Assembly (NCBI GenBank): GCA_937863565.1
Contig: CALMGJ010000028.1
Coordinates: 40,802-104,801, forward strand
Direction of reading: 5' to 3'
DNA length: 64,000 nucleotides
Origin: an uncultured bacterium
Lineage (GTDB): Bacteria; AUK180
Numbering within the stretch: position 1 is the first letter of the stretch; every line of letters starts with the position of its first letter. Positions 22,483 to 63,467 of this stretch are shown in pieces. The notes under the pieces were generated by a model. That model saw only the letters and a list, made by a program, of their open reading frames with translations, was not told the DNA's origin and ran no database searches. The position numbers and the translations under genes are program-made.

Positions 22483-22497
22483 TGGTCACTCCTATTA

Positions 22498-31923: not shown

Positions 31924-32018
31924 AAGGCCTCCTTGAATAATTATAGCAATTTTCGAGTACTCAGTCAAGATTATAACGGGGCGGTCTTCAGTGGAGCGCT
32001 GTGCCTTATTCTGTCCTT

Positions 32019-43960: not shown

Positions 43961-44990
43961 TGCATGCTCCTTCCGATGACACCATGCAAGGTCCGATCGG
44001 ATACCGCGGATTGCATTTCAAAGCAAATGAAGGACAGTCGAACGGCGTTTTTCTGCCCCGTAATATATCACCGCAAATGCATGCGCTCTTCTTTTTTTGT
44101 TTTTTTACGGTCACACCGAACTTCAAAGCCGCATCGTATTCCGAATAACCGGGCCTTATCCCGTAACCGCTTCCCGGTATCATGCCGAAACCCCGCCATT
44201 CCGAATCGCAGACAGAGAAGATTTCATTCATGGTCCTCAGCATCGCGGGATTCCCCTTTTTCCCGGCAGCTTTCGTATAAGCGTTCTTGATCCCTAAAAA
44301 GCCCGTTGAGATCATTCCGAGGCAAACGGTTATCCCGTCTGCCATTTCGCCGTATTCGAAACCGGTAACGGTCCCCCGTATCTTGAGACCTTCGTAGTAA
44401 TCCGTTCCCGTGATCACTGTAACGTGACCGGGCAGAAGAAAAGCGTCTATGTTCAGTTCTCTGTCCGAGGAAAGAAGCTTTAGCGCGGGATACAAGCGTT
44501 TATGGGCCGAGAGAACGCTGAAGTTCCGGAGTTTCCTTCTCTTCGCCTCCTTGATCAGGAATGCGATAAGGGGGGCCGTAGTCTCAAAACCTATTCCCGC
44601 AAAAACAAACTCATTTCCCTGCCTGTCGCATATATCAAATGCGCGGTCGGGACTGTAGACAGTGAATATATCCCCGGCCGGAAGATCGCCAAGTCTCCTC
44701 CCGTTCTCATCAGGCACTTTGATAAGATCTCCGAATGTGATCACTTTAATCCCCTTGCCTGCCAGTTCAAGAAGAGCGGCGATATATCCGCTTTCGGTAA
44801 CACAAACAGGGCAGCCGGGCCCGGATACCAGTTCGATATTAGCGGGAAGGGCCTCTTTGAGCCCCGTTCGGGCCAGATTCATCGTATGCGTACCGCAAAC
44901 TTCCATTATCCTGATCTTCCTTCTGATGGAAGAAGCAAGTATTTCTATGGCGTTAAGAGAATTTGAGGTGTTACTTTCTTTTCTCATCAT
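43926..44990 (-). CDS. hypD: hydrogenase formation protein HypD
   Basis: CGTHT, GPGCPVC, FETTAP motifs. Confidence 0.9.
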   Translation of the reverse strand: MMRKESNTSNSLNAIEILASSIRRKIRIMEVCGTHTMNLARTGLKEALPANIELVSGPGCPVCVTESGYIAALLELAGKGIKVITFGDLIKVPDENGRRLGDLPAGDIFTVYSPDRAFDICDRQGNEFVFAGIGFETTAPLIAFLIKEAKRRKLRNFSVLSAHKRLYPALKLLSSDRELNIDAFLLPGHVTVITGTDYYEGLKIRGTVTGFEYGEMADGITVCLGMISTGFLGIKNAYTKAAGKKGNPAMLRTMNEIFSVCDSEWRGFGMIPGSGYGIRPGYSEYDAALKFGVTVKKQKKKSACICGDILRGRKTPFDCPSFALKCNPRYPIGPCMVSSEGACSAWYKYKKRKN

Positions 44991-45201
44991 CCAGCAAGCT
45001 TTTTAAAAGATCCAGGACCTCTTCGGCCTCCTTTTCACCTATCATCTCTATCGAAAAACCGGCGTGAACCAGTACATGATCGTTCTTTTTCACGCCCGGC
45101 GTGAAAGCGGTGTTTATCAATATCCTGGCACCGTGGATGAGCGCTTCCGCGTGCTGCGCATCAATGATCTTTTTTATCTTTACCGGAATTGCAAGACACA
45201 T
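44971..45201 (-). CDS. hypC: hydrogenase assembly chaperone HypC
   Basis: MCLAIPVKI N-terminus; track ORF extended upstream into hypF. Confidence 0.85.
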   Translation of the reverse strand: MCLAIPVKIKKIIDAQHAEALIHGARILINTAFTPGVKKNDHVLVHAGFSIEMIGEKEAEEVLDLLKSLLDDEKRK

Positions 45202-45205: not shown

Positions 45206-47452
45206 TCAGATCCTCCTTGAGGCAAGATAGGCCTGACCTGCTGAAATACCGTTATCAGAAGGAGAAAGCTGCCTGTGCGTATGCACTTTGAGATCAGCGC
45301 ATTCAAGCCTTTCCCTGATCAGAGCGGGGATATAAGCATTTAGGAAAACACCTCCGGACAGCAGGACTTCCGACAGGCCGTACTCTTCTCTCATTACCTT
45401 TATCATGTTCACGGCGATATCGGACAATGTGAAAATGAACCGGGAAGAGATCTCGCTTATATCGCGTTTTCTTTCCATAGAATCCGCTATCTCGGCGATC
45501 ATGATATCGGGATCGATGATGTATTTTCCGTCTTTCTGTATTATCCTTATTGAGTACGGGTCTTTTAAAAAATCCTTTTTCACAGCGCTTTCAAGCGCTA
45601 TCGCCGCCTCGCCGGAGAATGTGTTCCAATCCTTCAAACCCGTCAAGAAAGCCACTGCATCGATCAAACGTCCTACTGAAGATGTAAGGGGGCAGTTCAT
45701 TCCGTTGAGGATCATCTTCGAGATCTTTTCCGTAAGGTCATAAGAAAGCGGCACTCTTTTCAATTTCTTCATATCAAGGCGCGCTCTGAGAGCATAAGAA
45801 GCGGCAATCCTCGATATATCGGAAGATGCGGCATCACCTCCGGGAAGCTCGATATATTTAAGGTGCCCGATTCTCTGGAAGCCCTGATGGGAATACACCA
45901 TGAACTCCCCTCCCCACATATTGCCGTCCTCTCCGTAACCGCTGCCGTCCCAGGCTATCCCGATTGCTTTTCCCGTTACTTTATTCTCGTACGCGCAGGA
46001 GGCCAGATGAGCATAGTGATGCTGGATCTTGAGCAAAGGCACTTTCTCTTTTGCCGCCATTTTCTCGAACAGTCCCGTCGTGAGATAACCCGGGTGCTTG
46101 TCGCAAACGAGGATATCGGGAGTGAAGGAGAAAAGCTTCATGAACCGCTTCAGTTCTGAATGATAGGCCTCCAGGTTCTCCTTGTCCTCTATATCCCCCA
46201 AGTATTGGGAAGGATACGCTCTTCCTTCCTTGACAATGCAGAACGAGCAATTCTCCGAAGCGCCGGAGGCAAGTATGTTCTTCCCGCTGCGAAGATCGAA
46301 GGTGGAAGGGACATATCCCCTGCTTCTTCTGAGAAATACCGCTCCGTCCCCGGTCTTTTTGATCACGCTGTCGTCACATCTTGCCAGGATCGAAAGGCCG
46401 TGGGTCAGAACAGGGCCCTTGAAATGCTCTTTTGCTTTTTCATCGGCCGTTACAGTAGGCGCAGAGGCCGGATTGAGGCTCGTGTATACAAGAAGATCCA
46501 AGTGTGAAGAGCCGAAAAGGAGTTTATGCGCAAAAGAGTATGGGAGCATTATCCCTACTCGGTCATTATCGGGAGAGACTGAATTAAGGAAAGACTTCGA
46601 AGGATTTTTCCTAAGAAGGACGATCGGGCGCGCCGGGGAAAGTAAAATAGATTCCGCGGCCGCATCAATGAAAGCATACTGTGATGCCTTATCAATCGAA
46701 GATGCCATGAGTGCAAGCGGTTTTGTTCCCCTTGATTTCAATGATCTTAGCTTTTTAATCGCTTGCGGGTTCTTCGGGTCTCCCACAAGATGAAAGCCTC
46801 CGATCCCTTTTACGGCAATGATATTTCCGGCCTTTATGTGTTCGGCCGCCTTTTTGAAAGCATTTTCTCCCTTGAAATTTCCGAGCCTGTAAGAGGGACC
46901 GCAGGAGGGACAGGTTATCGTCTGAGCATGGAATCTGCGATTTCCGGGGTCCCCGTATTCGATCCCGCATGAAGGGCATATTGAGAATTCGCCATAGGCA
47001 AGGTTTTTCCTGTCATAAGGAAAGGCATTAAGTACGCTGAATCGCGGGCCGCATGATAAACAGGAAGTAAACGGATACTTGAAGCGTTTATTCCCCTTTT
47101 CGTTGAAATCCTCCTCGCATTCCCGGCAGTATGCAAGATCCGGCGGAATCTGCGGATTGGCATTATCTTCTGAAGAGCTTTTTTCAATGAAGAACTGCTT
47201 TCCGGAGACCTTTCCGCCCGGCAACTGTATAATGCTGTCGATCCTGGCACCCGGCGGGGATTCTTTCTTTATCCGGACGATGAGCGCATCGATGTTTCCG
47301 GGTTCCGAGAAAAAAATGACCTCGACCCCCTTTTTCGTGTTCCTTACGGATCCCCGTACCGAAAGTTCATCTGCCTTTCTTTTGATGAAAGGCCTGAAAC
47401 CAACCCCTTGGACAATCCCGCGGATGAGGAACTTCTTACAGATCTTTTCCAA
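45206..47452 (-). CDS. hypF: carbamoyltransferase HypF
   Basis: acylphosphatase N-domain, two CxxC zinc-finger pairs, YrdC-like and Kae1-like domains; 748 aa. Confidence 0.92.
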   Translation of the reverse strand: MEKICKKFLIRGIVQGVGFRPFIKRKADELSVRGSVRNTKKGVEVIFFSEPGNIDALIVRIKKESPPGARIDSIIQLPGGKVSGKQFFIEKSSSEDNANPQIPPDLAYCRECEEDFNEKGNKRFKYPFTSCLSCGPRFSVLNAFPYDRKNLAYGEFSICPSCGIEYGDPGNRRFHAQTITCPSCGPSYRLGNFKGENAFKKAAEHIKAGNIIAVKGIGGFHLVGDPKNPQAIKKLRSLKSRGTKPLALMASSIDKASQYAFIDAAAESILLSPARPIVLLRKNPSKSFLNSVSPDNDRVGIMLPYSFAHKLLFGSSHLDLLVYTSLNPASAPTVTADEKAKEHFKGPVLTHGLSILARCDDSVIKKTGDGAVFLRRSRGYVPSTFDLRSGKNILASGASENCSFCIVKEGRAYPSQYLGDIEDKENLEAYHSELKRFMKLFSFTPDILVCDKHPGYLTTGLFEKMAAKEKVPLLKIQHHYAHLASCAYENKVTGKAIGIAWDGSGYGEDGNMWGGEFMVYSHQGFQRIGHLKYIELPGGDAASSDISRIAASYALRARLDMKKLKRVPLSYDLTEKISKMILNGMNCPLTSSVGRLIDAVAFLTGLKDWNTFSGEAAIALESAVKKDFLKDPYSIRIIQKDGKYIIDPDIMIAEIADSMERKRDISEISSRFIFTLSDIAVNMIKVMREEYGLSEVLLSGGVFLNAYIPALIRERLECADLKVHTHRQLSPSDNGISAGQAYLASRRI

Positions 47453-47457: not shown

Positions 47458-48951
47458 CTATCTTGAGAGCTTCTTTATAAGATGCCTTTCATGGTCATAT
47501 ATGTTCAGCGTAAGCGGCATCTGACCTGGAAGAGAATGCGTTGCGCAAGCCATGCACGGGTCATATGCCCTGAAAGCCATTTCGACTTTATTGAGGATCT
47601 CGTCGGAAACCTGGCCTTTTTTAATAAGGTTCTCAGCCGCCTTCGTTATGGACATTGATATCGCCGCGGCATTGCCGTATGTGGCCACAAGCAGGTTCAC
47701 GTAGTTTAAAACACCGCGTTCATCCGTCCGGTAATGATGGATGAGGGTCCCCCTTGGAGCTTCGACAACGCCGATGCCTTCCTCGGGTTTTCTTTCAGGC
47801 AAATTCCTGAGGTCCTTAGATGTAATGCTTTTATCTGACGAGAGTTCAAGCAGTCTTTCTGCGGCATAGAGCATCTCGACGAGCCTTGCCCAATGGAATG
47901 CCAAGGTGTGATGTGAAGGTTTGCCCCCCAGTGTCTTGAACATCGCGTCATGCTCCTTATCCGCGTATTCGGTAGCCATGCCGTCAGAGGCATTGAGTCT
48001 CGCAAGAGGGGCCACTCTGTAAACACCGCTCTTTTCACCGTCCGTGAACCCTTTCCAGCCTATCTTTTTCAGATAAGGGAATTTCACATAGCTCCATTCC
48101 TCCTTGTGTTCTGCGATATGGTCCCCGAAATCTTTCACATCGAACTTGGCGAACTCCCGGCCGTCCGGATTTACTACGCGGATCTTCCCGTCATAGAAAT
48201 TGACCTTATTGTTCTTGTCTACAAGACCCATATAATATGTGCGATGCCTGTAGATGTCGCCGGTGATGAGCTTGACATATTCTTCATTCTTGAGAACGAT
48301 ATTTCGGAAGGCATCAAGCGAGAATTTCGCAAAATCGATCGCATCTCGCGCGATACCTTCAATATTCTTTCTTTCATTTTCATCAAGCCCTTTCGAAACA
48401 CCGCCGGGAAGTCCGCATACGGGATGTATCACGCGACCGCCGAAGAATGTGATGATGCTGCGCAAACGCTTCCGCATTTCAATGACCCTTTTACCCGTTT
48501 CAAGGCCGACCTTCTCGATCACGCCCAGTATATTCCTGCTTCCCGCGGGAGCGCCCGGGCCTACGATGAAATCGGGACTTCCCAGAAAATAGAAATGCAG
48601 GGCATGGTCCTCGACCATGAAGGCGCAGTATATGATCTCTCTTATCTTCCTGGCGGTTTCCGTAGGTTCTATCTTGTAAAGGTCGTCCAGGGCCTTAGTA
48701 GAGGCCATATGATGCGCTGTCGGGCATACACCGCAGATCTTAGGCGTGATCCTCGGCATCTCTTCGGCGGCACGGCCGAGCGAGAACACTTCAAATCCTC
48801 TTAATTCGGGGATCTGCAGATAGGCGTTCTTCACATTGCCTTTATCGTCAAGGAATATCTCTATCTTGCCGTGGCCTTCAAGCCTTGTTATGGGATCGAT
48901 CGTGATCTTCTTCACTTCTTCCTCCGGGTCATCCTCTGAGCATCCATCCAT
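47458..48951 (-). CDS. [NiFe]-hydrogenase large subunit (group 3 / Mvh-like)
   Basis: RLEGHGK, KICGVCPTAHH (L1), C-terminal DPCMACATHS. Confidence 0.9.
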   Translation of the reverse strand: MDGCSEDDPEEEVKKITIDPITRLEGHGKIEIFLDDKGNVKNAYLQIPELRGFEVFSLGRAAEEMPRITPKICGVCPTAHHMASTKALDDLYKIEPTETARKIREIIYCAFMVEDHALHFYFLGSPDFIVGPGAPAGSRNILGVIEKVGLETGKRVIEMRKRLRSIITFFGGRVIHPVCGLPGGVSKGLDENERKNIEGIARDAIDFAKFSLDAFRNIVLKNEEYVKLITGDIYRHRTYYMGLVDKNNKVNFYDGKIRVVNPDGREFAKFDVKDFGDHIAEHKEEWSYVKFPYLKKIGWKGFTDGEKSGVYRVAPLARLNASDGMATEYADKEHDAMFKTLGGKPSHHTLAFHWARLVEMLYAAERLLELSSDKSITSKDLRNLPERKPEEGIGVVEAPRGTLIHHYRTDERGVLNYVNLLVATYGNAAAISMSITKAAENLIKKGQVSDEILNKVEMAFRAYDPCMACATHSLPGQMPLTLNIYDHERHLIKKLSR

Positions 48952-49583
48952 TCCGAGACTTTATGTATTCCGGACCCTGTCTTTCCGGACGTTTCGATCA
49001 CTTTCGCTTTCGGATTGACCGATCTGAGATTCTTAAGAAAGGTCTTTTTATCGAAATCGACATATGGCAGAAGGTCTATCTTGTTCAGGATGACAAGATC
49101 CGCTTTATTGAATGCCAGCGGGTATTTAGCAGGTTTATCATCGCCTTCCGGTACGGAAAGAACGACAATGTTCCGATGGGAGCCGGTATCGAATTCTGCA
49201 GGGCAGACAAGATTGCCGATATTCTCGATAATGACGGTTTTCACTTTTTTCAGATCGAGTTCCCCGAGAGCCGTCCTTATCCAGGAAGCCTCGAGATGGC
49301 AGTCGCCGCCGAACGGCCCCGTATTGATCGAAACCACTTTGACCTTTTTCTTTGAGATGCGTTCCGAATCGAGAGTCGTCTCGATATCCCCTTCCAGTAC
49401 TGCGACGGAACTCCTATCCTTCATTGTTCCGACAATGCTTTCGATGATCGTCGTTTTCCCTGAACCGGGGGAGCTCATCATATTGAAGGCTGTGATGCCT
49501 TTTCCGTTGAACCATTCCCTCGTACTTCCGGCAAGCTGATCGTTCGCTTTCAAAACACTTGTCAGGATCTTGATCTTATTCAA
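48912..49583 (-). CDS. hypB: hydrogenase nickel-incorporation GTPase HypB
   Basis: GSGKTT P-loop, ENIGNLVCP, NKIDL. Confidence 0.9.
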   Translation of the reverse strand: MNKIKILTSVLKANDQLAGSTREWFNGKGITAFNMMSSPGSGKTTIIESIVGTMKDRSSVAVLEGDIETTLDSERISKKKVKVVSINTGPFGGDCHLEASWIRTALGELDLKKVKTVIIENIGNLVCPAEFDTGSHRNIVVLSVPEGDDKPAKYPLAFNKADLVILNKIDLLPYVDFDKKTFLKNLRSVNPKAKVIETSGKTGSGIHKVSEWMDAQRMTRRKK

Positions 49584-49918
49584 TCATTAACCTCCACATA
49601 TTCGATGTTCAATTCCCTTCCTTTTACTATTTCAACGTCCCGGGAAGGACATTCGGGGCATTGAAGGACGAACCTGTCCTTAAGTACCGCACCGGCACCG
49701 CATTTTCTGCATCTTACGGACACCTTCACTCTTTTGATCTTGAGTTCCGCATCTTCCAGGGCGGTCCCTTTCTTTGCTATATCGAAAGAGAAACGCAACG
49801 CCTCAACTGAAACGCCTGATATATCCCCGACAGCCATCTTAAGCGCCCTGATCTTTTTATCCGGCACTTTTTCCGTGATGATATCGAATATATTCATGAC
49901 GATGCTCAGTTCGTGCAA
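49580..49918 (-). CDS. hypA: hydrogenase nickel-insertion protein HypA
   Basis: MHELSI N-terminus; CRKCG...CPEC zinc site. Confidence 0.9.
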   Translation of the reverse strand: MHELSIVMNIFDIITEKVPDKKIRALKMAVGDISGVSVEALRFSFDIAKKGTALEDAELKIKRVKVSVRCRKCGAGAVLKDRFVLQCPECPSRDVEIVKGRELNIEYVEVND

Positions 49919-50367
49919 AACGTCAACTCCCTCATCCGGCCAACGATCCCGGGGAAAAGGGACTGCATCCCGGGAGTAAGTTCTTCCGAAAATGTGACAT
50001 TGTCAATGACCTCGATCCCGAAGAACCTGATATCGTCCGCAATGCCGATCCCGTATTTCCGGCCGAGATCCAGAAGGTCGAAGAGATTGAGCCCGTGATA
50101 CCTGGAAGGGTTCGACCTGAATTCGCCGATCCTGCTTCTGTCCATTTCCAGAATATGTCCCGGAGGGTATTTTCCTGTCAGCATCGAATCTATAAAACAA
50201 ACGCTCGGTTCTCCCTCTATCTCGTAAATAAGATCAAGATTGCATATTTCGACGATCCTGCTTTTCAAGCCCGGGATATCCCTTTTCAGCGCTTCCACGA
50301 TCCTTATTCCAATGGAATCATCGCATAATATCATGTTCCCCAGGCCGACGAAAAGTGTGCCGCTCAT
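49906..50367 (-). CDS. hydrogenase maturation endopeptidase (HycI/HyaD family)
   Basis: LFVGLGNMILCDDSIGIR N-terminal motif; 153 aa. Confidence 0.8.
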   Translation of the reverse strand: MSGTLFVGLGNMILCDDSIGIRIVEALKRDIPGLKSRIVEICNLDLIYEIEGEPSVCFIDSMLTGKYPPGHILEMDRSRIGEFRSNPSRYHGLNLFDLLDLGRKYGIGIADDIRFFGIEVIDNVTFSEELTPGMQSLFPGIVGRMRELTFCTN

Positions 50368-50375
50368 TCCCGGGT

Positions 50376-51725
50376 CTACTCCTTCGGCGGCGCGGCGATG
50401 ATCTTGTTCTTCATTGCCAGATGAACGAGTTTCTGAGCTCTTTTGATCTTTTCGGCCGCGCTTTTCCTGAGTTCCTCTTCTGAAAGCGGTCTTCTTGCAG
50501 TACCGTCCTTCACCGCTTTAAGGCCGCAAGCCACTGCTTCGTCGATGAACGCTTCCGTATCGTCCATATCGGGGATGATATAGTCTTCTCTGAGACCGCG
50601 TTTCTGAGCTGTCTTGGCCAGCGATTCAGCCGCGGCAACGCACATCTCGTCTGTCACCGTTTTCGCCCAGACATCAAGTACCCCTCTGAATATGGCAGGG
50701 AACCCGAGTGAATTGTTCACCTGATTCGGAAAATCGCTCCTTCCGGTCGATACGATCCTCGCACCGGCCTCTTTTGCCTCCCATGGCCATATTTCCGGTA
50801 CGGGATTGGCGCAGGCGAATATGATCGCATCCTTGTTCATCCCTTTTATCCAATCCTTTTCGATCGTATTCGGGCCAGGTTTAGAAAGCGCGATGCATAC
50901 ATCGGCCCCGGCCATGGCCTCTTTGATCCCGCCTTTCTTGCCTTCGGCATTGCTCACTTCGCAGATATGCCATTTCTCCTTCGTTTTCGGGTCATTGAGA
51001 TCCGTCCTTTCCTTGTTCAATATACCCTTGGTATCTACCATGACGAGATTTCCCGGATCCACGCCCGCCAGCATTATGATCCTTGAAATGGCAATATTGG
51101 CAGCTCCGGCGCCGATCATCGTTATCTTTGCCGTTTTTATATCCTTCCCCACGACCTTGAGCGCATTGATCAGGCCGGCGAGGGTCACGGTGGCTGTTCC
51201 CTGCTGGTCGTCGTGCCATACCGGTATGTTCATCTCGTTTCTTAGTCTTTCAAGGATATAGAAGCATTTAGGCTGAGAAATGTCCTCAAGGTTAATGCCT
51301 CCGAACGTGGGTTCGAGCGCCTTAACGATCTCGATGAATTTATCGGGGTCCTTCTCTTTGATGCAAAGAGGGAAGGCATCAACGCCTCCGAGATATTTAA
51401 AAAGAAGCCCTTTGCCTTCCATTACGGGAAGACCTGCTTCCGGCCCGATATCCCCGAGACCAAGGACCCTTGTCCCGTCGGATATGACCGCTACGAAATT
51501 GCTTTTATTGGTGTGCTCCCATACCTTTTCGGGATATTCCTTGATCTCCTTGCAGGGAGCGGCGACACCGGGCGTATACCATATGGCAAAATCCCGGAAA
51601 TCCCTCACGCATGCTTTGAGCGTGATCTCAATCTTGCCTTTATAGAAAGGGTGCAGTTTCAGCGCATCGGCGGCCGGTTTTTTGGCCTTAGCAAGCAATT
51701 CCTCGACATTCACCTTTTTATCCAT
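50376..51725 (-). CDS. NAD(P)-dependent malic enzyme
   Basis: ATG at 51723-51725 with AGGAGG RBS; malic-enzyme N-domain and NAD-binding [10 protein letters not shown]. Confidence 0.88.
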
Positions 51726-51738
51726 AGTTACCTCCTCC

Positions 51739-53406
51739 TTAAAATATATCAAGTATTCTCTGCAGTACGGCCTTCCCGCGGTATTCGGGCAGCAGTATCG
51801 GGGCTCTTCGTTCCGTTTTTATCCCTGCTTCCTTCAGCTCTTTACCGTAGCGTTCGAGATGCTTGAAGGAAAGGTCGCCGTTCTCCTTGTGCTTTTTTAT
51901 ATATTCCGCCGCAGTTGCGCCGGAGATCCTGCCGAAAACAATGCAGTCCAGTGTCGAATTCCCCATCAGGCGGTTCTTGCCGTGAACGCCGCCGGAAACC
52001 TCGCCCGCAACGAGCAATCCCTCGATATTGGTCCTCCCCTCCGGGTCGGTCTCGACCCCGCCGTTCTGGTAATGGAGCGTAGGGAAGACGAGAACAGGAT
52101 CCTTTATCATATCTATGCCGAAACGCTTGAACATCCTCACCATGCCGGGGAATGAATTCTCTATCGCGCCTTTGCCCTTGATCAGATCGATGAGCGGCGT
52201 ATCGAGCCAGACGCCTTTCATCCCGGTAGGCGTATCAACGCCGAGACCGTTCACATAGCATTCCTTGATAAAAGCTGAGGCTTCCACATCCCTCGGTTCA
52301 AGAGGATAAACAAAAGCGTCGCCGTTCACATTGACGGGCTGGCCGCCCATTGACCTCAATTTTTCCGTAAGAAGAAGACCGACGATCTGCTGGGGATATG
52401 CGGCGCCTGTCGGGTGGTATTGAACGGTATCCGTATCCCTGAGCTTTGCCCCGGTCCTGTAAGCGAGCACGACGCCGTCATTCGTTGCGCCGTAATGATT
52501 GGTCGTGGGGAAACCACGTATATGGAGCCGCCCGAAACCGCCTGTGGCAAGGATAGTTATCCTGGAGCGGACTATCTTGTACTCTCCGGTCTCCATTTCC
52601 CAGAGCACTGCGCCGGTGACCTTGCCTGTTCCAGGGTCGGTGAGAAGCTCTACGACAGGATTGAATTCGAGGCATGGTATTTTCCTGTTGCGGAATTCAT
52701 CCCTGAGCACGCGGAGTTCTTCCATCCCCGTATAGTCCTTGCAAGCATGCATTCTTTTCCTTGAAGTGCCGCCGCCCGGAAGTCTTACGAAATCCCCGTC
52801 CTCCATGCGGTCGAACAGAACACCGAGCCCCGTCATCCATTGGAGCGCAACGGGCGCTTCGCTGACAAGAGCCTTTAACACGTCCGGTTTATTGGTAAAA
52901 TGCCCTCCGCCCAAAGCATCGATGAAATGTATCGGAGGAGAATCCTCCTTCGAATCGGCAACTTGAGTTCCGCCCTGGGCCATGATCGAATTTGAATCCC
53001 CATGGCGCAGCTTGTTCACAAGGAGTATCCTTTCAACGGGAATGCCGTTGTCATTTGCAAGTAGCGCGGCCGAAGTGCCGGCAAGTCCGCCGCCGATGAT
53101 CAGGATATCGGTATCGATATCGATCTTTTTAAGATCAACGGAGCGGGTATCTATCAGAGGATGGGCTTCAATAAGGTCGGCAACTTCGCTTGGGGCCAGA
53201 TCGCCTTTGTTCACGCCGATCTTGAGAGCTCTTTTGCCCTCCTTGTGATAATCCGGATGGCAGAGGTTCAGGACATCGTCCCGGGCCGCCAGGCTCATCG
53301 CGGGAACGGATGTCTTAAGTCTTTTCGATCTGGTCGCTTCCACCTTTTTTATCGATTCCCTCATACTCTTGGGATAACCGCCAATGAGTTTGTATTCTTC
53401 GCCCAT
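51739..53406 (-). CDS. fumarate reductase/succinate dehydrogenase flavoprotein-like subunit with ~100-aa N-terminal extension
   Basis: ILIIGGGLAG FAD fold; RSMGGQ and HYQNGGV motifs; no Tat signal in the extension. Confidence 0.8.
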   Translation of the reverse strand: MGEEYKLIGGYPKSMRESIKKVEATRSKRLKTSVPAMSLAARDDVLNLCHPDYHKEGKRALKIGVNKGDLAPSEVADLIEAHPLIDTRSVDLKKIDIDTDILIIGGGLAGTSAALLANDNGIPVERILLVNKLRHGDSNSIMAQGGTQVADSKEDSPPIHFIDALGGGHFTNKPDVLKALVSEAPVALQWMTGLGVLFDRMEDGDFVRLPGGGTSRKRMHACKDYTGMEELRVLRDEFRNRKIPCLEFNPVVELLTDPGTGKVTGAVLWEMETGEYKIVRSRITILATGGFGRLHIRGFPTTNHYGATNDGVVLAYRTGAKLRDTDTVQYHPTGAAYPQQIVGLLLTEKLRSMGGQPVNVNGDAFVYPLEPRDVEASAFIKECYVNGLGVDTPTGMKGVWLDTPLIDLIKGKGAIENSFPGMVRMFKRFGIDMIKDPVLVFPTLHYQNGGVETDPEGRTNIEGLLVAGEVSGGVHGKNRLMGNSTLDCIVFGRISGATAAEYIKKHKENGDLSFKHLERYGKELKEAGIKTERRAPILLPEYRGKAVLQRILDIF

Positions 53407-53407
53407 C

Positions 53408-54178
53408 CTATCCTCCTTTAATGAATTTGTCCTTGTTGGCCAGCTGATCCTTGTAGATCTTTACAAGTTCATCCTTGTTCTTCTTGACAAGATCCTTGAA
53501 CTCCTTGTCGTAAACACCCTTTTTTATATCGCTGACCCTTTTATCAAGGACTGCATTCCTCGGATACCCGTACCTTCCGTACATCTCCCGCCCGAATTGG
53601 GCAACATGGTAATGTACGATCTCAGCTGGGCATCTGACAGCGCACATCCCGCATTGGATGCAGTCAAAAGAGAGCTCGGAAACCTTTTTGAAATCCCCTC
53701 TCAAGGCGGCTTGGATATAATCCATGACCTGAAGGTCCTGCGGACAGGCCTTTGTGCAGGTATTACATGAAACGCAGCGGGCGATCTCGGGAAAATACGC
53801 CAGAAAAGCCCCGTCTTCGTATCCGGTCTTCTCGATATTCCATCTCGGTTTAACTGCCGGCGAGAATGGAAGCTGAACGAGGAACATGCCCTCTTCAACC
53901 CTGGTCTGGCATGCCATCGCCGTTTTAAGCCTGTAATCGCCTTTTAAACGGTATATGGTCGAACAGGCGCCGCAGAAACCCGCGCGGCACCCGCATGAAT
54001 GGATGAAGCGGAAACCGGCATATTCCATCGCCTGCATTATCGTAAGATCGGCCGGGACCTCGTATCTTTGCCCCATGATATAGATATTGGCCCAGTGTTT
54101 GATCTCGCTTTTATCGACCCCCTTGATCACGGAACTGTTCGCTTTCGCGATCTCACCCATGATGTCTTTTTTCGACAT
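53408..54178 (-). CDS. fumarate reductase/succinate dehydrogenase iron-sulfur subunit
   Basis: 2Fe-2S CGCRAGFCGACS; CVSCNTCTKACP and CIQCGMCAVRCP cluster motifs. Confidence 0.85.
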   Translation of the reverse strand: MSKKDIMGEIAKANSSVIKGVDKSEIKHWANIYIMGQRYEVPADLTIMQAMEYAGFRFIHSCGCRAGFCGACSTIYRLKGDYRLKTAMACQTRVEEGMFLVQLPFSPAVKPRWNIEKTGYEDGAFLAYFPEIARCVSCNTCTKACPQDLQVMDYIQAALRGDFKKVSELSFDCIQCGMCAVRCPAEIVHYHVAQFGREMYGRYGYPRNAVLDKRVSDIKKGVYDKEFKDLVKKNKDELVKIYKDQLANKDKFIKGG

Positions 54179-54190
54179 ATGAAGCCTCCC

Positions 54191-55084
54191 TTATCTTTTT
54201 ATTTTCTTTTCGCCGGTCTGCGCGAGGGCCGTCTTTATGAACCCCGGTTCCTCATCCCATTCTCCCGGGTCCATTCCAAGAGCATAGGCCGACAATTCGG
54301 TGAAGTATGCCACAGGGATCCCTTTGAAATCCGGATATGCAGCGCATATTTCATTTTGGATATCTTTCAGATTGAAAAAACAAAGAGGACAAGCGGTAAT
54401 GACGGCATCCGCACCCGATTCTATTGCGGATGTAAGTATCTTATATGCCAGTTCGACTACCTTCTCCCTGGCGTTAACCGTCTGATATGAGCCGCAACAC
54501 AAGCGGGAGAAGGGCGTACTCAGGGCCTCTGCACCGAAAGTCTCCACATATCTTTCCAATATCACCGGTGCTTCGGCGTCATCGAGGGATGCCTCCTTCG
54601 GTCTTAAAAGCGTACAGCCGTAATAAACGAAAACCTTCAGGCCCTTGAGCTTTCTTTTCAGTTTGACCGAACCCGGTTCAATGCTCTTGAACAACTCGAG
54701 GAAATGAAGAACGGAGACATTGCCCTGATAAGCGCTCTCAGTATCCATGATGTTCTTTATTTTACTTCTGTCTTCAGCTGAATTCTTATAGCGTATATTA
54801 GCCCTTTTCAGCGTATTAAAGCACATCGAACAAAGCGTGACGAGTGTTTCCTCGCTTAGAAACGCCCCTTCTTTCATATCCTGAACCCTGACAAGATTCC
54901 TGATCGGGGCGAGGTGATGGATCAGATCATCGGACGAAAGGGAGAAGACAGCGCCGCAACAATTCCAGTTGGGAAGCTCAATAAATTCATAACCGAGCTT
55001 TTCCGCTGTGTAAAGCGCCGTTTTTTCGAATATCTTCGCCTTTGTCTTCAGAGTGCAACCCGGATAGTATCCTATCTTCTTCAT
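54191..55084 (-). CDS. HdrB-like / SdhE-type protein with two CCG domains
   Basis: YYPGC and CCG motifs twice (NWNCCGA, CCGS...CPLC). Confidence 0.85.
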   Translation of the reverse strand: MKKIGYYPGCTLKTKAKIFEKTALYTAEKLGYEFIELPNWNCCGAVFSLSSDDLIHHLAPIRNLVRVQDMKEGAFLSEETLVTLCSMCFNTLKRANIRYKNSAEDRSKIKNIMDTESAYQGNVSVLHFLELFKSIEPGSVKLKRKLKGLKVFVYYGCTLLRPKEASLDDAEAPVILERYVETFGAEALSTPFSRLCCGSYQTVNAREKVVELAYKILTSAIESGADAVITACPLCFFNLKDIQNEICAAYPDFKGIPVAYFTELSAYALGMDPGEWDEEPGFIKTALAQTGEKKIKR

Positions 55085-55093
55085 ATTCTTCCC

Positions 55094-55516
55094 CTAACCC
55101 GTCATTTTCCGCAAAGCCGCAACAAGCGCGATCTGGGGAAGTTTTTCCAGTTCGGCCGGAGTCAGTTTTGAAAGGTCGATCCTGTTCACGGAATCCCTCA
55201 GGATGATCTGCCTCAGGGCTTCAGCCACTTTTGAGATATCTATGCCCCTCGGACACCGTACCGTGCATGTATAACAGGAAGCGCAGTACCAGATGATGTC
55301 CGAACCGAGGATCTCCTTCTGCCCGAGGGCGGCCATCCTCATCATCAGGCTCGGGGAGGTCTCCGCTTTATCGCACATGGGGCATCCGCCAGAGCAAGTC
55401 CCACACTGTTCGCATAATGTTACGATCTCGCCTGAAAGTTCGATGATCTTTTTCGTGAACTCGGCACTTTCTTTGTCAAGAATTATCTTTTTGCTCATCA
55501 TTTCTCCTTTTATCAC
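55094..55516 (-). CDS. HdrC-like 2x[4Fe-4S] ferredoxin-domain protein
   Basis: CEQCGTCSGGCP and CASCYTCTVRCP. Confidence 0.8.
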   Translation of the reverse strand: MIKGEMMSKKIILDKESAEFTKKIIELSGEIVTLCEQCGTCSGGCPMCDKAETSPSLMMRMAALGQKEILGSDIIWYCASCYTCTVRCPRGIDISKVAEALRQIILRDSVNRIDLSKLTPAELEKLPQIALVAALRKMTG

Positions 55517-56480
55517 CGAGATTTGAGGCCGGAAGGCTGTACATATAGAAGAGGCCGACAGGGTCAGGTATCGAATCGATCAGCCGGGACACATCCTCCT
55601 CGCTTGCGATCTCTTCTTCATCTATTCCAAGAAGCGACGCAATGGCGGAGAGTATCTTCGCCCCCTGGTCATAAACCCGAGGGGAAGGTCCGAAGCATCC
55701 CCGGCAGGGCATATTGGCATTGATGCAACGCTCGCCGCAGCCGGAGCGGGTGGCCGGTCCCAAACAAATTATACCTTCGGAAAGGAAGCATTTCTCGGGA
55801 TCATGTATGACCTCATGAGGCCTTTTCAACTCTTTTATACTGAATTTATCCGGTTTTTTATCCCGTAGAGGGCATGTGTCGCAAAGTGATTTATCCGAAG
55901 CGAACACTGTGCCCTTTGGAGGTAATTCGCCCTTCAGAAAAGCAGTTAACCCTTTAAGTATGATGTCGGCCGGCGGCGCGCAGCCAGGGATATAGTAGTC
56001 CACATCGATGGTTTGGTCCAAAGTCCTTACATATTCGCATATTTCCGGAATCTCCAGTTCGTTCCCATCCGCTTTTGAGAGCGGTTTCGGCACCGTTCTA
56101 TCGTCATTCGTTTCAAGGTCTTCATAAATAAGTTTCAGAAGTTTTTCTTTTGCGAATTGATTGCCGAGTCCCGGTATACCCCCGATATGCGCGCAGGAAC
56201 CGAAAGCTGCCACATACGCGGACTTCTTTCTCAATAATCTCACCATCTCTTCCTGTTCCCTTGTCCTGATCGCACCGTTAATGAAACTTACCGCAATGCT
56301 CCGGTCGGACAATTTTTCGACATCGCTCCTTTTAAAATCAAGGGCGACCGGCCAGAAAACGATGTCCACTTTTTCGGCTACCTGGAGCAGGTCTTCATTG
56401 AGATCCACAACGGCTTCTTCGCAACCGCCGCAGGAAGCGCACCAGTAGAAAGCCACTTTCGGTTTACTCATAGTATTCAC
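55476..56480 (-). CDS. [NiFe]-hydrogenase small subunit (group 3 / MvhG-like)
   Basis: VAFYWCASCGGCEEA proximal-cluster motif, GSCAHIGG, C-terminal Cys clusters; GTG start at 56480 or ATG at 56471. Confidence 0.85.
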   Translation of the reverse strand: MNTMSKPKVAFYWCASCGGCEEAVVDLNEDLLQVAEKVDIVFWPVALDFKRSDVEKLSDRSIAVSFINGAIRTREQEEMVRLLRKKSAYVAAFGSCAHIGGIPGLGNQFAKEKLLKLIYEDLETNDDRTVPKPLSKADGNELEIPEICEYVRTLDQTIDVDYYIPGCAPPADIILKGLTAFLKGELPPKGTVFASDKSLCDTCPLRDKKPDKFSIKELKRPHEVIHDPEKCFLSEGIICLGPATRSGCGERCINANMPCRGCFGPSPRVYDQGAKILSAIASLLGIDEEEIASEEDVSRLIDSIPDPVGLFYMYSLPASNLGDKRRNDEQKDNS

Positions 56481-56538: not shown

Positions 56539-56955
56539 TCATGCATTCTTCGGAGGGCCAAGTTCGATCATCTTTTCAATGGTAGAATTTACAACGGATG
56601 CGAATCTTTCTCCCTCGCTTGCCGACACCCAGTCTATGGTCAGCCTCTCCTTCTCATAACCCATATCCTCAAGCACTCTTTTAAGAAGAAGCGTTCTTCT
56701 GAGAGCTTTATAATTCCCGTTTTTATAGTGGCAGTCTCCGGGATGGCAGCCGAGGATGAGGACGCCCCACGCACCTTTCTTGAAAGCTTCCAATACGGTA
56801 TCCGGTTCTACTCTGCTTGAACACATTGTCCTTATGATCCTGAAATACGGTTTTATGTCCATTTTCGATACACCGGCATTATCCGCGCCGGCATACGAGC
56901 ACCAGTTGCAGCAGAAAACCACAAGTTTCGGTCTTTCTATTGTTCCCTTCTTCAT
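56539..56955 (-). CDS. MvhD-like hydrogenase iron-sulfur subunit
   Basis: LVVFCCNWCSYAGADNAG motif; ATG at 56953-56955 overlaps HdrA stop (ATGA). Confidence 0.85.
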   Translation of the reverse strand: MKKGTIERPKLVVFCCNWCSYAGADNAGVSKMDIKPYFRIIRTMCSSRVEPDTVLEAFKKGAWGVLILGCHPGDCHYKNGNYKALRRTLLLKRVLEDMGYEKERLTIDWVSASEGERFASVVNSTIEKMIELGPPKNA

Positions 56956-58889
56956 AATATCGCCCTGAGCATCTCTTTGATCTGTTCGGTATTGAACCAT
57001 TTCTGCTGGGCGGCGCCGGACGGACAGCTTCCGGCGCATGAACCGCAGCCCTTACAGAGCATTTCATTGACCTTGGCGAATTTCCTTGCCCCCTCTGCCT
57101 CGAAGGCGATGGCATCATACGGACAAACGCTGATACAGACCCCGCAGCCGGCGCACAGCTCCTCGTCTATTGAGGCGGTTATCGGCTCCGCCTCGTATTC
57201 GCCCTTGTTCATGAGCCTGATCGCACGGGCGGCAGCGGCAGAGGCCTGGGCAACCGTATCGGGTATATCCTTAGGACCCTGGACAGTACCCGCGAGAAAG
57301 ATGCCCTCTGTAAGGGTATCGACCGGTTTAAATTTCGGATGTGCTTCGGCAAGAAAACCGTCCGTGGTCCTTCCTATCCTTAGGATATCGCGTATCTTCT
57401 TCGTCCCTTCGCTTGGGACCATGCCGGTAGAAAGTATCACCGTATCGAACTCCCCTTCGATGAGACTTCTAGTAAGCGTATCTTCAACTTTCAATATAAG
57501 TTTTTTATTCTTGGGATTTTCCTGTATTTCCGCCGTCCGGCCTCTTATATATTTCACGCCATTCTTCTGGGCCCTTTTATAATACTCCTCGAAGCCTTTC
57601 CCGTAGGCTCGTAGATCCGTATAGAAGATGTAGATATCCCGTTCGGGCCTGTTCCTTTTCAGAAGCTGCGCGAGTTTTGTAGCATACATGCAGCACACTC
57701 TCGAACAGTACTCCTTTTTTATCTGCTCATCCCGCGATCCTACGCATTGGATGAAAGCGATCTTATTGCCGATATCGACAAGGTTTTTCCCGGATTCCTC
57801 ATGTTCCACAAGCCTTTCCAATTGAAGCGCAGTAAGAACATTTTCGTATTTCCCGAATCCGAATACCGGTTTTTCTGCCGGATTGAAGATATCGAAACCC
57901 GTCGCCACGATTATCGTGTCTACGGTGATATCCATCGTTTTCTCGTACTGATCGTAATTTATGGCCTTCGCATCGCAGGCGTCCCTGCATTTGGCGCAGG
58001 CAAGAGGAAGTAGGCCGAGACAATTCTCTATATCAAGCGTAAATGAATGAGGTACGGCGATATCAGTGGGAATATAGATCGCTTTTCTGAACGAGAGACC
58101 TTCATTGAACTCATTGGGGACATCCACCGGACAGACCTCGGAGCAATCCCCGCAGCATGTGCATTTCGAAGGGTCTACATAAGTAGGTTTGATCTTTATC
58201 TTCGCATTGTAATTGCCGAGATATCCGGAAATTGCAATAACCTCGGAATATGTCAGAAGTTCGATGTTCGGATGCGCAGCGACATCGGACATCTTTGGAG
58301 AGAGGATGCAGGCGGAACAATCCTCTGTCGGGAATGTTTTTGAAAGTTGGGCCATATGCCCACCGATCGTAGGCTTCTCCTCTACAAGATATACTTTGAA
58401 CCCCGCATCGCCGAGGTCAAGCGCGGCCTGAATACCGGCAATGCCGCCGCCGATCACGAGAACTCTTTTCCCGATGGGCATTTTTGCTTTACTAAGCGGA
58501 GTATCCAACCTGACCTTCGAAATGGCTATATTAGTGAGGTCCTTAGCTTTTTCCGTTGCTTCCTCGGGATAATTGATGTGAGCCCATGAACACTGTTCCC
58601 GGATATTGGCCATTTCAAGAACATAAGGATTGAGACCCGCGCGCTCCATCATTTTCATGAAAGTCTGGCCCTGGAATGAAGGCGAGCAGGCTGCTATGAC
58701 GATCTTGTCCAGCTTGAATTCCCTGATATCGCTTAAAACGAGCATCTGGCCTTCATTAGAACAGATATGGCCGTTGTCGCGTACAAGTACCACATCTTTC
58801 TGTTTTTTTGCGAATTCGACCGCTTCTCCGATATTGACAATATCGGAAATATTTCCCCCGCAATGGCAAATATATACACCTATTCTCAT
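56952..58889 (-). CDS. HdrA-like FAD/Fe-S flavoprotein (heterodisulfide reductase subunit A family)
   Basis: VLVIGGGIAGIQAALDLGDAG FAD fold; several 4Fe-4S motifs (CTCCGDCSEVCP, CAGCGVCISVCP, CKGCGSCAGSCP); 645 aa. Confidence 0.88.
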   Translation of the reverse strand: MRIGVYICHCGGNISDIVNIGEAVEFAKKQKDVVLVRDNGHICSNEGQMLVLSDIREFKLDKIVIAACSPSFQGQTFMKMMERAGLNPYVLEMANIREQCSWAHINYPEEATEKAKDLTNIAISKVRLDTPLSKAKMPIGKRVLVIGGGIAGIQAALDLGDAGFKVYLVEEKPTIGGHMAQLSKTFPTEDCSACILSPKMSDVAAHPNIELLTYSEVIAISGYLGNYNAKIKIKPTYVDPSKCTCCGDCSEVCPVDVPNEFNEGLSFRKAIYIPTDIAVPHSFTLDIENCLGLLPLACAKCRDACDAKAINYDQYEKTMDITVDTIIVATGFDIFNPAEKPVFGFGKYENVLTALQLERLVEHEESGKNLVDIGNKIAFIQCVGSRDEQIKKEYCSRVCCMYATKLAQLLKRNRPERDIYIFYTDLRAYGKGFEEYYKRAQKNGVKYIRGRTAEIQENPKNKKLILKVEDTLTRSLIEGEFDTVILSTGMVPSEGTKKIRDILRIGRTTDGFLAEAHPKFKPVDTLTEGIFLAGTVQGPKDIPDTVAQASAAAARAIRLMNKGEYEAEPITASIDEELCAGCGVCISVCPYDAIAFEAEGARKFAKVNEMLCKGCGSCAGSCPSGAAQQKWFNTEQIKEMLRAIL

Positions 58890-59458
58890 TTAACAACCCC
58901 TTTCGGCTTTTTCCCGGCGGTCCGTTCGAGGGCATGAGCGTATCCCTTTTCAAAAGCGGAAACATTCAAAGCGATGAATTTTTCCGGAACTGATTCTTTA
59001 ATGGCCCTTAACATTGCTTCCTTCGATGCGATCTTCGCCTTTGCCGTTATGAACCCGAGCATTACGATATTGGCTACGATCTTCTTTCCCATCTCTTCGG
59101 CAAGTCTTGTACAGGGAATATCGAAAACCTTCGTTTTTGCATGATGTCTTACGTTTTTAACAAGGTCGGTTTCATAGAAGACCGTCCCTCCCTCGTCTAC
59201 GATGCCCTTGAAAGTATCGTACCCTTCCTGCGAAAGAGCGATGAGCACATCCGCTTTATCTACTAGCGGATAATTAACTTCTGTCCCGCTTATCACGAGC
59301 TGGGAGCTGCAGGCTCCGCCTCTCGATTCCGGGCCGTAGGCTTCGGTCATGGCCGAGAACTTACCGTCGTAGATAGAGACGGCCTTACCCAGGATATATG
59401 CCATCAGTATTATCCCCTGTCCGCCGAATCCGGCTATCTTGACCCTCTGTTCTTCCAT
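58886..59458 (-). CDS. 2-oxoacid:ferredoxin oxidoreductase gamma subunit
   Basis: IAGFGGQGIILMA signature. Confidence 0.85.
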   Translation of the reverse strand: MEEQRVKIAGFGGQGIILMAYILGKAVSIYDGKFSAMTEAYGPESRGGACSSQLVISGTEVNYPLVDKADVLIALSQEGYDTFKGIVDEGGTVFYETDLVKNVRHHAKTKVFDIPCTRLAEEMGKKIVANIVMLGFITAKAKIASKEAMLRAIKESVPEKFIALNVSAFEKGYAHALERTAGKKPKGVVK

Positions 59459-59465: not shown

Positions 59466-60344
59466 CTATTCCTCCATATGCTTTTTTTCGAGATATATAT
59501 TCGGGAATCTTTTCTTGAGACCGGCCTGGACAGTATCCCAGAAAGTGGGTTTCTCGATGTTCACGAATTCCCCGCAGACGATCTTTCCGTCCATATCCAA
59601 TGGTATCTTGGTCGGGTCCGCCGTATGGTCTATTACTGACCTTCCCGCAAATTCCTTGAGAAGGTCAAGACCTGTGCCGCCCCTGTTCTTCCTTGCATAG
59701 ACAGTAGGGCATGGGGAGACGACCTCGATAAAGGAGAATCCCTTTCTTTTAAAGGCAGTGGATACCGACTCCGACAGGCGCCTTGTATGAAGCGCTGTCC
59801 ATCTGGCCACATAGGAAGCGCCGGCAGATGCGGCTATGCCCACAAGATTGAAAGGCTCCTCGCAGTTGCCGTAAGGTGCAGTGGAACTATAGGCGGAGAT
59901 CGGAGTGGTCGGCGCATTCTGGCCGCCCGTCATCCCGTAGATGAAATTATTCACGCAGATCACGGTCAGGTCCACATTCCTCCTAGCCGCATGTATCAAG
60001 TGATTACCGCCGATCGCGAAGAGGTCACCATCGCCGGAAAAAACGACCACTTTGAGATCCTGATTGGCAAGTTTAATGCCTGTCGCGAAAGGAATGGCGC
60101 GGCCGTGAGTTGTATGGTACGAATCGAGTTTGATATATCCTGCGATCCTTGCCGTACAGCCTATACCGGACACAACAACGGTGCTGTTATAGTCGGCTCC
60201 GGCCAATTTCAGCCCCTCCACAAATGCGGTCATAGCGGTCCCCAGGCCGCAGCCCGAGCACCAGATATGAGGCATTCTGTCCATCCTCAGAATATCTCCC
60301 ATGGGATGGGATTCGGGATTCACGATCTTATTTTTTCTTGCCAT
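59466..60344 (-). CDS. 2-oxoacid:ferredoxin oxidoreductase beta subunit (TPP-binding)
   Basis: WCSGCG, GDGD TPP motif. Confidence 0.88.
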   Translation of the reverse strand: MARKNKIVNPESHPMGDILRMDRMPHIWCSGCGLGTAMTAFVEGLKLAGADYNSTVVVSGIGCTARIAGYIKLDSYHTTHGRAIPFATGIKLANQDLKVVVFSGDGDLFAIGGNHLIHAARRNVDLTVICVNNFIYGMTGGQNAPTTPISAYSSTAPYGNCEEPFNLVGIAASAGASYVARWTALHTRRLSESVSTAFKRKGFSFIEVVSPCPTVYARKNRGGTGLDLLKEFAGRSVIDHTADPTKIPLDMDGKIVCGEFVNIEKPTFWDTVQAGLKKRFPNIYLEKKHMEE

Positions 60345-63218: not shown

Positions 63219-63467
63219 ATGCTAACTCCTTTTCCGTTTTCATTTTCGAATGTAAAAGAATCATCAGCCGAATTTTTCACCAGTTTATTATAACAAAATA
63301 GAACTGTAAATCCAAACGGAATTTAATTATTTCCCGAATGGGGGATATTCACCAATATAATAGTATTTATGTAGATTACGCACGCCGCTGCGTTACTGCA
63401 GGCCGAGCTTGATCGATTACCGATCAGAGATAATTGGCATTATCCGTATCCGGAAGTATCACTGTTC

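Follow-up and report, generated by a model that had tools for sequence, protein, structure and literature searches.

Separated [NiFe]-hydrogenase genes in an operon for a putative H2-driven, HdrA-based bifurcating fumarate reductase of an uncultured bacterium

Several described systems resemble the operon discussed here, which lies in a 64,000-nucleotide stretch of DNA from an uncultured bacterium (GTDB lineage Bacteria; AUK180; assembly GCA_937863565.1, contig CALMGJ010000028.1, positions 40,802 to 104,801 of the forward strand; hereafter, at its full length, the window) and in which the large-subunit gene of a [NiFe]-hydrogenase, mvhA, is separated from the small-subunit gene, mvhG. The first is the MvhADG-HdrABC complex of hydrogenotrophic methanogens (5ODC), to whose families all six subunit types in the window have their best matches, with the cluster motifs intact. 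However, the window is bacterial, so that the heterodisulfide of coenzymes M and B (CoM-S-S-CoB) is not expected, all the equivalog cut-offs are missed, an FrdB-like iron-sulfur (Fe-S) protein gene and an FrdA-like flavoprotein gene follow hdrB, and mvhA stands away from mvhG. The second is TfrAB, the thiol:fumarate reductase of Methanothermobacter (Heim et al. 1998, cited in PMC8542988), where TfrA is the top match of the FrdA-like protein, and TfrB is collinear with the Fe-S protein, HdrC and HdrB. Like TfrAB, the window's enzyme appears soluble, with neither a membrane anchor nor the histidine that binds flavin adenine dinucleotide (FAD) covalently; but one TfrB chain corresponds to three window proteins, the FrdA-like protein carries a 95-residue extension, and the genes are embedded in an Mvh-HdrA operon.

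Similar gene contents have been reported from genomes. In Ca. Celaenobacter (Cloacimonadota), Williams et al. 2021 (PMC8542988) described a cluster of thiol:fumarate reductase, 2-oxoglutarate:ferredoxin oxidoreductase (OGOR), fumarate hydratase, succinyl-CoA synthetase, group 3c Mvh and Hdr, from which they infer an H2-driven reductive tricarboxylic acid (TCA) cycle. The co-localised fumarate reductase, OGOR, fumarate hydratase, Mvh and Hdr are also found in the window, whereas, in this comparison of gene content only, the window lacks succinyl-CoA synthetase (the gene of which adjoins the cluster in one relative, L007) and has malic enzyme and a full hyp set. In Ca. Endoriftia persephone and Thioflavicoccus mobilis, flxABCD-hdrABC are interspersed with korABCD and tfrAB (Rubin-Blum et al. 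2019, Mitchell et al. 2024; PMC6315080, PMC11636981); the genes of the Endoriftia cluster are co-expressed, a bifurcating complex feeding fumarate reductase and OGOR was proposed for them in the same papers, and a 2026 survey repeats this Flx-Hdr/Tfr/Kor proposal (PMC13147460). There, electrons enter through the NADH dehydrogenase Flx, whereas in the window their input would be the [NiFe]-hydrogenase MvhAG. In the Mnemosynellales, a thiol:fumarate reductase is syntenic with an Hdr-like complex (Adam et al. 2022), and several papers on metagenome-assembled genomes (MAGs) of WOR-3, Cloacimonadota, Acetothermia and Thermoplasmatota give Mvh-Hdr and fumarate reductase separate entries and draw no link between the two. 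In our literature search, the phrase 'bifurcating fumarate reductase' turned up in no paper.

Another soluble enzyme, the five-subunit NADH-dependent fumarate reductase FrdABCDE of the reductive TCA cycle in Hydrogenobacter thermophilus, was reportedly described by Miura et al. in 2008 (cited in PMC13147460). In that enzyme, FrdAB reportedly combines with extra Fe-S and Hdr-like subunits instead of a membrane anchor and takes its electrons from NADH via a GltD-like subunit. Neither HdrA nor a hydrogenase is known to take part, and bifurcation is not known to have been proposed for it. Among solved structures, the window's MvhA is best matched by NiFe-HydABCSL (7T2R/7T30), the bifurcating module of which is HydABC (NuoEFG-like, NAD) as opposed to HdrA here; the match to 7t2r_D (4.4e-117) is slightly better than that to methanogen MvhA (5odc_F, 2.6e-115). 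The gene set itself is widespread and already described from genomes; only the displacement of mvhA, and with it the split order, is unusual.

A conserved gene set in varying order

The first-pass annotation of this DNA had drawn attention to the separation of the two hydrogenase genes and to the metabolic and maturation genes between them, and in this it was accurate: mvhG and mvhA are both intact and share a strand, with 6.5 kb between them, and Pfam and NCBIfam place hdrC, hdrB, the FrdB-like and FrdA-like genes (hereafter frdB and frdA), malic enzyme, the maturation protease, hypA and hypB in the interval. It had omitted hdrA and mvhD directly upstream of mvhG, the genes for fumarase and a 2-oxoacid:ferredoxin oxidoreductase, and hypFCDE downstream. 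The tblastn searches with both subunits found no second large or small subunit in the 64-kb window, and the products of mvhG and mvhA are partner subunits of one hydrogenase. Judged by homology, motifs and context, the encoded set consists of a cytoplasmic hydrogenase, MvhAGD, of predicted group 3c, together with its maturation proteins, HdrABC, a soluble two-subunit fumarate reductase, and malic enzyme, fumarase and the oxidoreductase as enzymes of the reductive dicarboxylate branch of the TCA cycle. Read together, these genes probably, though by no means certainly, encode an H2-driven, HdrA-based electron-bifurcating fumarate and ferredoxin reductase feeding 2-oxoglutarate synthase, from one operon with a split specific to its lineage.

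The main evidence that the Hdr, Frd and Mvh genes work together is that they stay clustered through reshuffling in both domains. The FrdA-like subfamily is found in at least 597 species genomes (a lower bound, from a scan of one genome per species), with labels spanning more than 20 phyla of Bacteria and Archaea; the window's nearest labelled relative is a MAG called 'Candidatus Atribacteria' with 78% FrdA identity, although such labels are unreliable. Onto the loci collected from the species scan (80), from metagenomes (28) and by exact look-up (4), the window's 21 proteins were mapped by tblastn. In 94 loci frdA is directly preceded by the Fe-S gene, and in 55 hdrB comes immediately before the Fe-S gene. 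Co-occurrence was counted in 40 non-redundant loci whose sequence extends 8 kb or more upstream and 4 kb or more downstream of frdA: the Fe-S gene is near frdA in all 40, hdrA in 36, hdrB in 33, hdrC in 31 and mvhD in 29, followed by korA (17/40), mvhG together with mvhA (12/40), fumA (11/40) and malic enzyme (8/40).

At least five gene orders keep the Hdr/Frd/Mvh set together. The order hdrA-mvhD-mvhG-mvhA-hdrC-hdrB-FeS-frdA is that of Acetothermia and of MAGs labelled Methanofastidiosum, Thermoplasmata and 'Thermococci', and the same order minus the hydrogenase genes, with hdrA often fused to a degenerate mvhD, is found in WOR-3, Eisenbacteria and L007. Two loci (L011, L033) read mvhG-mvhA-hdrC-hdrB-hdrA-mvhD-protease-FeS-frdA-malic enzyme; at least eight others, from Aminicenantes-like and other MAGs (L023, L025, L032, L034, L044, L050, L062, L074), read hdrC-hdrB-korABG-hdrA-mvhD-FeS-frdA, where the position of the kor genes between hdrCB and hdrA-mvhD-FeS-frdA is the interleaving published for Ca. 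Endoriftia; and FeS-frdA-hdrC-hdrB-hdrA is also present. Finally, L090 and L117 (positions 1-11653) carry tandem modules, hdrA-mvhD-mvhG-mvhA-protease and then hdrA'::mvhD'(degenerate)-hdrC-hdrB-FeS-frdA, which may resemble an ancestor of the condensed operon in the window. In the 117 loci, the Fe-S gene is never fused with hdrB or hdrC, the only fusions being those of hdrA::mvhD.

These comparisons also bear on what the split may mean. The adjacency of mvhG and mvhA, taken in the first-pass annotation as the normal arrangement, is indeed the rule, as mvhA directly follows mvhG in all 15 related loci with both genes, the window being the sole exception. The annotation had proposed comparative synteny as a check and had read the interleaving as a sign either of co-assembly with the reductase modules or of a rearrangement. 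The comparison, now run, supports both at once, since the cluster conserved across varied orders speaks for a functional link and the invariable adjacency elsewhere for a rearrangement. Interleaving itself, on the other hand, is no argument, and we argue for the link because the cluster is shared independently of gene order. The annotation's concern that the split arrangement might be unique to this assembly is not borne out for the displaced mvhA, which follows frdA in two further loci, L006 and L010.

The proposed enzyme and its alternatives

In the mechanism that we propose, H2 would be oxidised at MvhA and the electrons would reach the FAD of HdrA by way of MvhG and MvhD, the route from MvhD to the HdrA flavin being as in the solved methanogen complex. 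HdrA would then bifurcate them, one by the high-potential branch through HdrC/HdrB and the FrdB-like protein to FrdA, where fumarate would be reduced to succinate, and the other by the low-potential branch to ferredoxin. The reduced ferredoxin would serve the co-encoded oxidoreductase in carboxylating succinyl-CoA reductively. The carbon route would run from pyruvate to malate (malic enzyme), fumarate (fumarase), succinate and 2-oxoglutarate, with one reduced ferredoxin made per fumarate and one used per 2-oxoglutarate. By standard potentials such coupling is thermodynamically plausible, the E0' of fumarate/succinate (about +30 mV) lying above that of the methanogen heterodisulfide (about -140 mV), which makes fumarate the stronger acceptor. 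A physical supercomplex, a direct HdrB-to-FrdB transfer and this direction of operation are what we infer from the genes. It is even conceivable, although we would not count on it, that MvhAGD, HdrABC and the FrdB/FrdA-like pair form a single soluble eight-subunit bifurcating enzyme, with fumarate as the high-potential acceptor, no thiol/disulfide intermediate and one reduced ferredoxin per fumarate.

The residues and context of the FrdA-like protein suggest that it reduces fumarate. Its H331, R351, R372, H445 and R479 match H232, R248, R287, H355 and R390 of Escherichia coli FrdA, and these five, together with T347 and E348, align with the substrate-binding and catalytic residues of that enzyme and are invariant in 24 homologues. 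FrdA and SdhA are the top Foldseek matches of its predicted fold (AlphaFold model of moderate confidence, with a mean predicted local distance difference test score, pLDDT, of 68). Where SdhA/FrdA read SHTVAAQGG it reads SNSIMAQGG, lacking the covalent-FAD histidine. The 95 residues of its N-terminal extension are conserved (G10, Y11, P12, H50, P51, D52 and others are invariant), and the mean column identity of the subfamily is 81% (alignment A1). TfrA, its best NCBIfam model, aligns over positions 6-411 of 546 with 283 bits against a cut-off of 718, and no match to Succ_DH_flav_C (PF02910) was found in the protein, the models stopping at about residue 511.

The Fe-S protein weakly resembles SdhB and TfrB, with the TfrB model lying on its residues 37-101. 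That model scores 36-38 bits against a cut-off of 385, its regions being spread over three separate proteins, and the Fe-S protein, HdrC and HdrB match consecutive segments of it (19-83, 128-221 and 262-469). The fusion of FrdB-like and HdrB-like parts in the single chain of archaeal TfrB supports direct cooperation of the three proteins here. HdrB has the motifs C10..CC42-43..C85xxC88 and C157..CC196-197..C232xxC235 and matches the HdrB chains 8rvu_b (1.3e-31) and 5odc_B (3e-29) of PDB.

The same proteins could be read in another way, though we find it unlikely: the Fe-S protein and FrdA, with HdrBC completing a split TfrB, would reduce fumarate with a low-molecular-weight or protein dithiol, and Mvh-HdrA(BC) would re-reduce the resulting disulfide, so that hydrogenase and fumarate reductase would be joined by a diffusible cofactor and not by a wire of clusters. 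The intact state of both HdrB CCG motifs, which in methanogens form the disulfide-reducing centre, would suit such thiol coupling, as would the NCBIfam results, in which TfrA and TfrB stand out as best or relevant, and the annotation of homologues as thiol:fumarate reductase in publications. But the single HdrB/HdrC pair of the operon would have to perform both thiol oxidation and disulfide reduction, the Tfr scores fall far short of their cut-offs, and coenzyme B is not known from bacteria.

About equally improbable, in our judgement, is that the bifurcating system works in reverse, with succinate oxidation and reduced ferredoxin confurcated to H2 (as in syntrophic succinate or propionate oxidation) and with OGOR acting oxidatively. 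Flavin-based bifurcating enzymes are generally reversible, and many relatives are uncultured fermenters or syntrophs (Aminicenantes, Cloacimonadota, Atribacteria). Both oxidative and reductive uses of such TCA modules have been discussed (PMC9635834). Malic enzyme, fumarase and OGOR, however, would fit a reductive route from pyruvate to 2-oxoglutarate with one ferredoxin per fumarate, and no methylmalonyl-CoA pathway genes are found in the annotation of the window.

Some observations weigh against a bifurcating fumarate reductase as we propose it. Our search of the literature found no biochemical characterisation of an Hdr-Frd complex or of fumarate as its acceptor. In four of the 40 loci used for the co-occurrence count, FeS-frdA lacks an hdrA within 8-10 kb. 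The FrdA-like protein scores well under both the TfrA and the SdhA/FrdA equivalog cut-offs and has no C-terminal domain; HdrB, by retaining both CCG sites, leaves room for a thiol/disulfide intermediate; and another mvhG, mvhA or hdrBC may be encoded outside the 64-kb window.

Origin of the split and layout of the operon

By FrdA identity, the window's closest relatives are L007 (78-79%), L010 (77-78%) and L006 (76-77%). The operon of L007 has no hydrogenase genes and ends in malic enzyme, while L006 and L010 read hdrC-hdrB-FeS-frdA and, after about 288 nt, mvhA. At its 5' end L010 has a degenerate MvhD-like domain before hdrC, and not mvhG; the contigs of both loci end there. In a neighbour-joining tree with no support values, the window's MvhA is sister to that of the pair L006 and L010. 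We regard the split as real; the shift of mvhA to a place behind the fumarate-reductase genes looks like a rearrangement specific to this lineage. The position of mvhA right after frdA in L006 and L010 also makes misassembly unlikely, and the tight, translationally coupled junctions of the window speak against a chimeric assembly. No repeats, insertion sequences or mobile elements were found at the rearranged junctions, only short chance matches. A chimeric origin of the operon, with an Mvh-type hdrA-mvhD-mvhG and a Frd-type hdrCB-frdBA brought together, was also considered; in a neighbour-joining tree of HdrA the window's sequence is basal in one mixed clade. The frdA-mvhA gap (3405-3684 in L006, 4108-4396 in L010) contains a 43-codon open reading frame (ORF), and no hyp genes follow mvhA in these loci, unlike in the window.

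An artefact, either a chimeric contig or a non-functional, decaying mvhG and mvhA with their true partners elsewhere, is very improbable even though the exact locus is known from one inspected assembly, for the overlaps of mvhG/hdrC and hypB/mvhA come with ribosome-binding sites, both genes are of full length and keep all their ligand motifs, mvhA is flanked by a complete set of maturation genes, two independent MAGs, L006 and L010, have mvhA in the same place after frdA, an identical MvhA is found on a separate Logan contig, and the junctions are free of repeats and insertion sequences.

The 20 kb between 63218 and 42947 on the minus strand (Table 1) appear to form one operon of 21 genes, in the order fumAB-korABG-hdrA-mvhD-mvhG-hdrCB-frdBA-malic enzyme-protease-hypAB-mvhA-hypFCDE. 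This is suggested by the packing of the genes on one strand, where all gaps are 67 nt or shorter once the starts are refined by ribosome-binding site and by the length of homologues, and stops overlap starts at korG/hdrA (4 nt), hdrA/mvhD (4 nt), mvhG/hdrC (23-26 nt) and hypB/mvhA (4 nt). A putative promoter, read by eye, sits in the 249-nt gap upstream of fumA, and the consensus scan gives a neighbouring weaker site at 63310-63282. Consensus scans of the operon for internal promoters and terminators gave no excess over shuffled sequence. Past hypE the next gene (41208-42917), for a histidine kinase, is convergent.

Table 1. Features of the putative operon, in the direction of transcription
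Feature	Position	Strand	Basis and remarks
Putative operon promoter	63287..63315	-	TTGGAT, 17 nt, TGTTATAAT = TGT-TATAAT extended -10; read by eye
fumA, class I fumarate hydratase alpha	62373..63218	-	NCBIfam NF004885, 409 bits vs cut-off 276
fumB, fumarate hydratase beta	61800..62363	-	Fumerase_C 5.8e-60; NF005310 277 bits vs cut-off 238
korA, 2-oxoacid:ferredoxin oxidoreductase alpha	60328..61791	-	NF006412 556.6 bits vs cut-off 411
korB, thiamine pyrophosphate (TPP)-binding beta	59466..60344	-	Pfam TPP_enzyme_C
korG, gamma	58886..59458	-	Pfam POR 6.1e-36
hdrA, FAD/Fe-S subunit with predicted bifurcating flavin	56952..58889	-	HdrA2 7.3e-255, 848 bits, below cut-off 1100
mvhD, [2Fe-2S] connector, 138 aa	56539..56955	-	FlpD 4.8e-51; ATG at 56955
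mvhG, predicted group 3c [NiFe] small subunit, 331 aa	55476..56471	-	Oxidored_q6 1.6e-22; VhuG best NCBIfam
hdrC, 2x CxxCxxCxxxC, ferredoxin-like	55094..55501	-	TIGR03290 9.4e-21; start 23-26 nt inside mvhG 3' end
hdrB, two complete CCG motifs (non-cubane [4Fe-4S] sites)	54191..55084	-	Pfam CCG x2
frdB, FrdB/TfrB-N-like Fe-S subunit	53408..54178	-	Pfam Fer2 + Fer4; [2Fe-2S] motif + 2x CxxCxxCxxxCP
frdA, FrdA/TfrA-like fumarate reductase flavoprotein, 555 aa	51739..53406	-	FAD_binding_2 4.7e-64; TfrA best NCBIfam
Malic enzyme, 449 aa	50376..51725	-	Pfam malic + Malic_M; ATG 51725 picked by ribosome-binding site
[NiFe]-hydrogenase maturation endopeptidase	49906..50367	-	TIGR00072, 59.9 bits vs cut-off 47.45
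hypA	49580..49918	-	Pfam HypA 7.7e-31
hypB	48912..49583	-	Pfam cobW/HypB/UreG 3e-22
mvhA, predicted group 3c [NiFe] large subunit, 485 aa	47458..48915	-	NiFeSe_Hases 4e-37; VhuA best NCBIfam
hypF	45206..47452	-	Five HypF-specific Pfam domains; 5-nt gap after mvhA
hypC	44971..45201	-	Pfam HupF_HypC
hypD	43926..44990	-	Pfam HypD 2.1e-113
hypE, last operon gene	42947..43960	-	Pfam AIRS + AIRS_C

The ORF of mvhA was first read as 47458-48951 (497 codons), but its true start is probably the GTG at 48915, 12 codons into the ORF, for which speak a GGAGG ribosome-binding site, a 4-nt overlap with the hypB stop and a product 100% identical to the database protein P0001. Likewise, within the ORF 55476-56480, mvhG starts at the ATG at 56471, with a product 100% identical to P0244. 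MvhA has both Ni-Fe ligand motifs, KICGVCPTAHH and DPCMACATH, the latter followed by a C-terminal extension of 25 residues; MvhG begins with MSKPKVAFYW and has 14 cysteines. The best NCBIfam models, VhuA (414 bits against an equivalog cut-off of 800) and VhuG (200 against 450), are both below their thresholds; the position of hdrA-mvhD immediately 5' of mvhG is the association expected of group 3c. The closest homologues of MvhA, about 70% identical, come from uncultured Elusimicrobiota, Aminicenantes, WOR-3, Cloacimonadota and others. Its nearest relatives (L001-L005) have the ordinary mvhD-mvhG-mvhA order, followed in some by protease-hypB-hypA, and no closer relative of MvhG with an mvhD-mvhG-hdrC junction was found, the best match being 68-69% identical. 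One MvhAG clade seems to attach to different bifurcating modules. In L001-L003 (71% MvhA identity) the hydrogenase is encoded after NuoE/F/G-like genes and mvhD.

For KorA, the family next to the best is the 2-oxoglutarate synthase alpha subunit, and OGOR_delta matches residues 26-80, the N terminus being a fused delta-type domain with 2x[4Fe-4S]; the best NCBIfam model of KorB, 2-oxoglutarate:ferredoxin oxidoreductase beta, scores 246 bits, below its cut-off. The substrate of the KorABG oxidoreductase is probably 2-oxoglutarate, which is our best guess from the protein families. The operon codes for a complete hydrogenase maturation set.

According to Pfam, the rest of the window holds housekeeping genes, tetratricopeptide repeat (TPR) proteins, a restriction-modification pair and regulators, with dnaK, dnaJ, fmt, def and a sigma-54 activator as bacterial markers; Rfam and tRNA scans of the window found no RNA genes. 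On the minus strand, eight or nine paralogous TPR-repeat genes occupy 16727-35293, with genes for a protein with two AAA+ domains (25928-28069) and an FmdE-domain protein (18010-18621) and a few unrelated genes between them. At 9544-11867 a gene for an EcoRI-type adenine methyltransferase adjoins one for a GmrSD_N + HNH endonuclease, in DNA with a GC content of about 0.40 as compared to about 0.48 elsewhere, which suggests an acquired restriction/defence islet. At 2446-3849, just upstream of peptide deformylase, methionyl-tRNA formyltransferase (Formyl_trans_N + _C) is fused to an N-acetylmuramoyl-L-alanine amidase domain.

What the locus may mean

The split order matters little by itself, other than showing that the structural genes of a hydrogenase can be separated within one operon with no sign of lost function. 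Of more consequence is that the locus is a compact example of a widespread module, made of a predicted HdrA-based bifurcating unit, a soluble fumarate reductase and a 2-oxoglutarate synthase. As it has every gene needed, including the maturation set, the operon also offers a practical template for heterologous expression. The gene clusters compared here suggest that an enzyme of the eight-subunit type could occur in hundreds of species of uncultured Bacteria and Archaea, its input modules (hydrogenase, Flx, other) being exchanged.

If our interpretation is correct, it would account for fumarate reduction in many anaerobes that have neither quinones nor coenzymes M and B, for the source of the low-potential ferredoxin used in reductive carboxylation, and for the acceptor that the many 'orphan' bacterial Mvh-Hdr complexes use physiologically. 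The eight-subunit enzyme, if it exists as such, would represent a new biochemical class of bifurcating enzyme.

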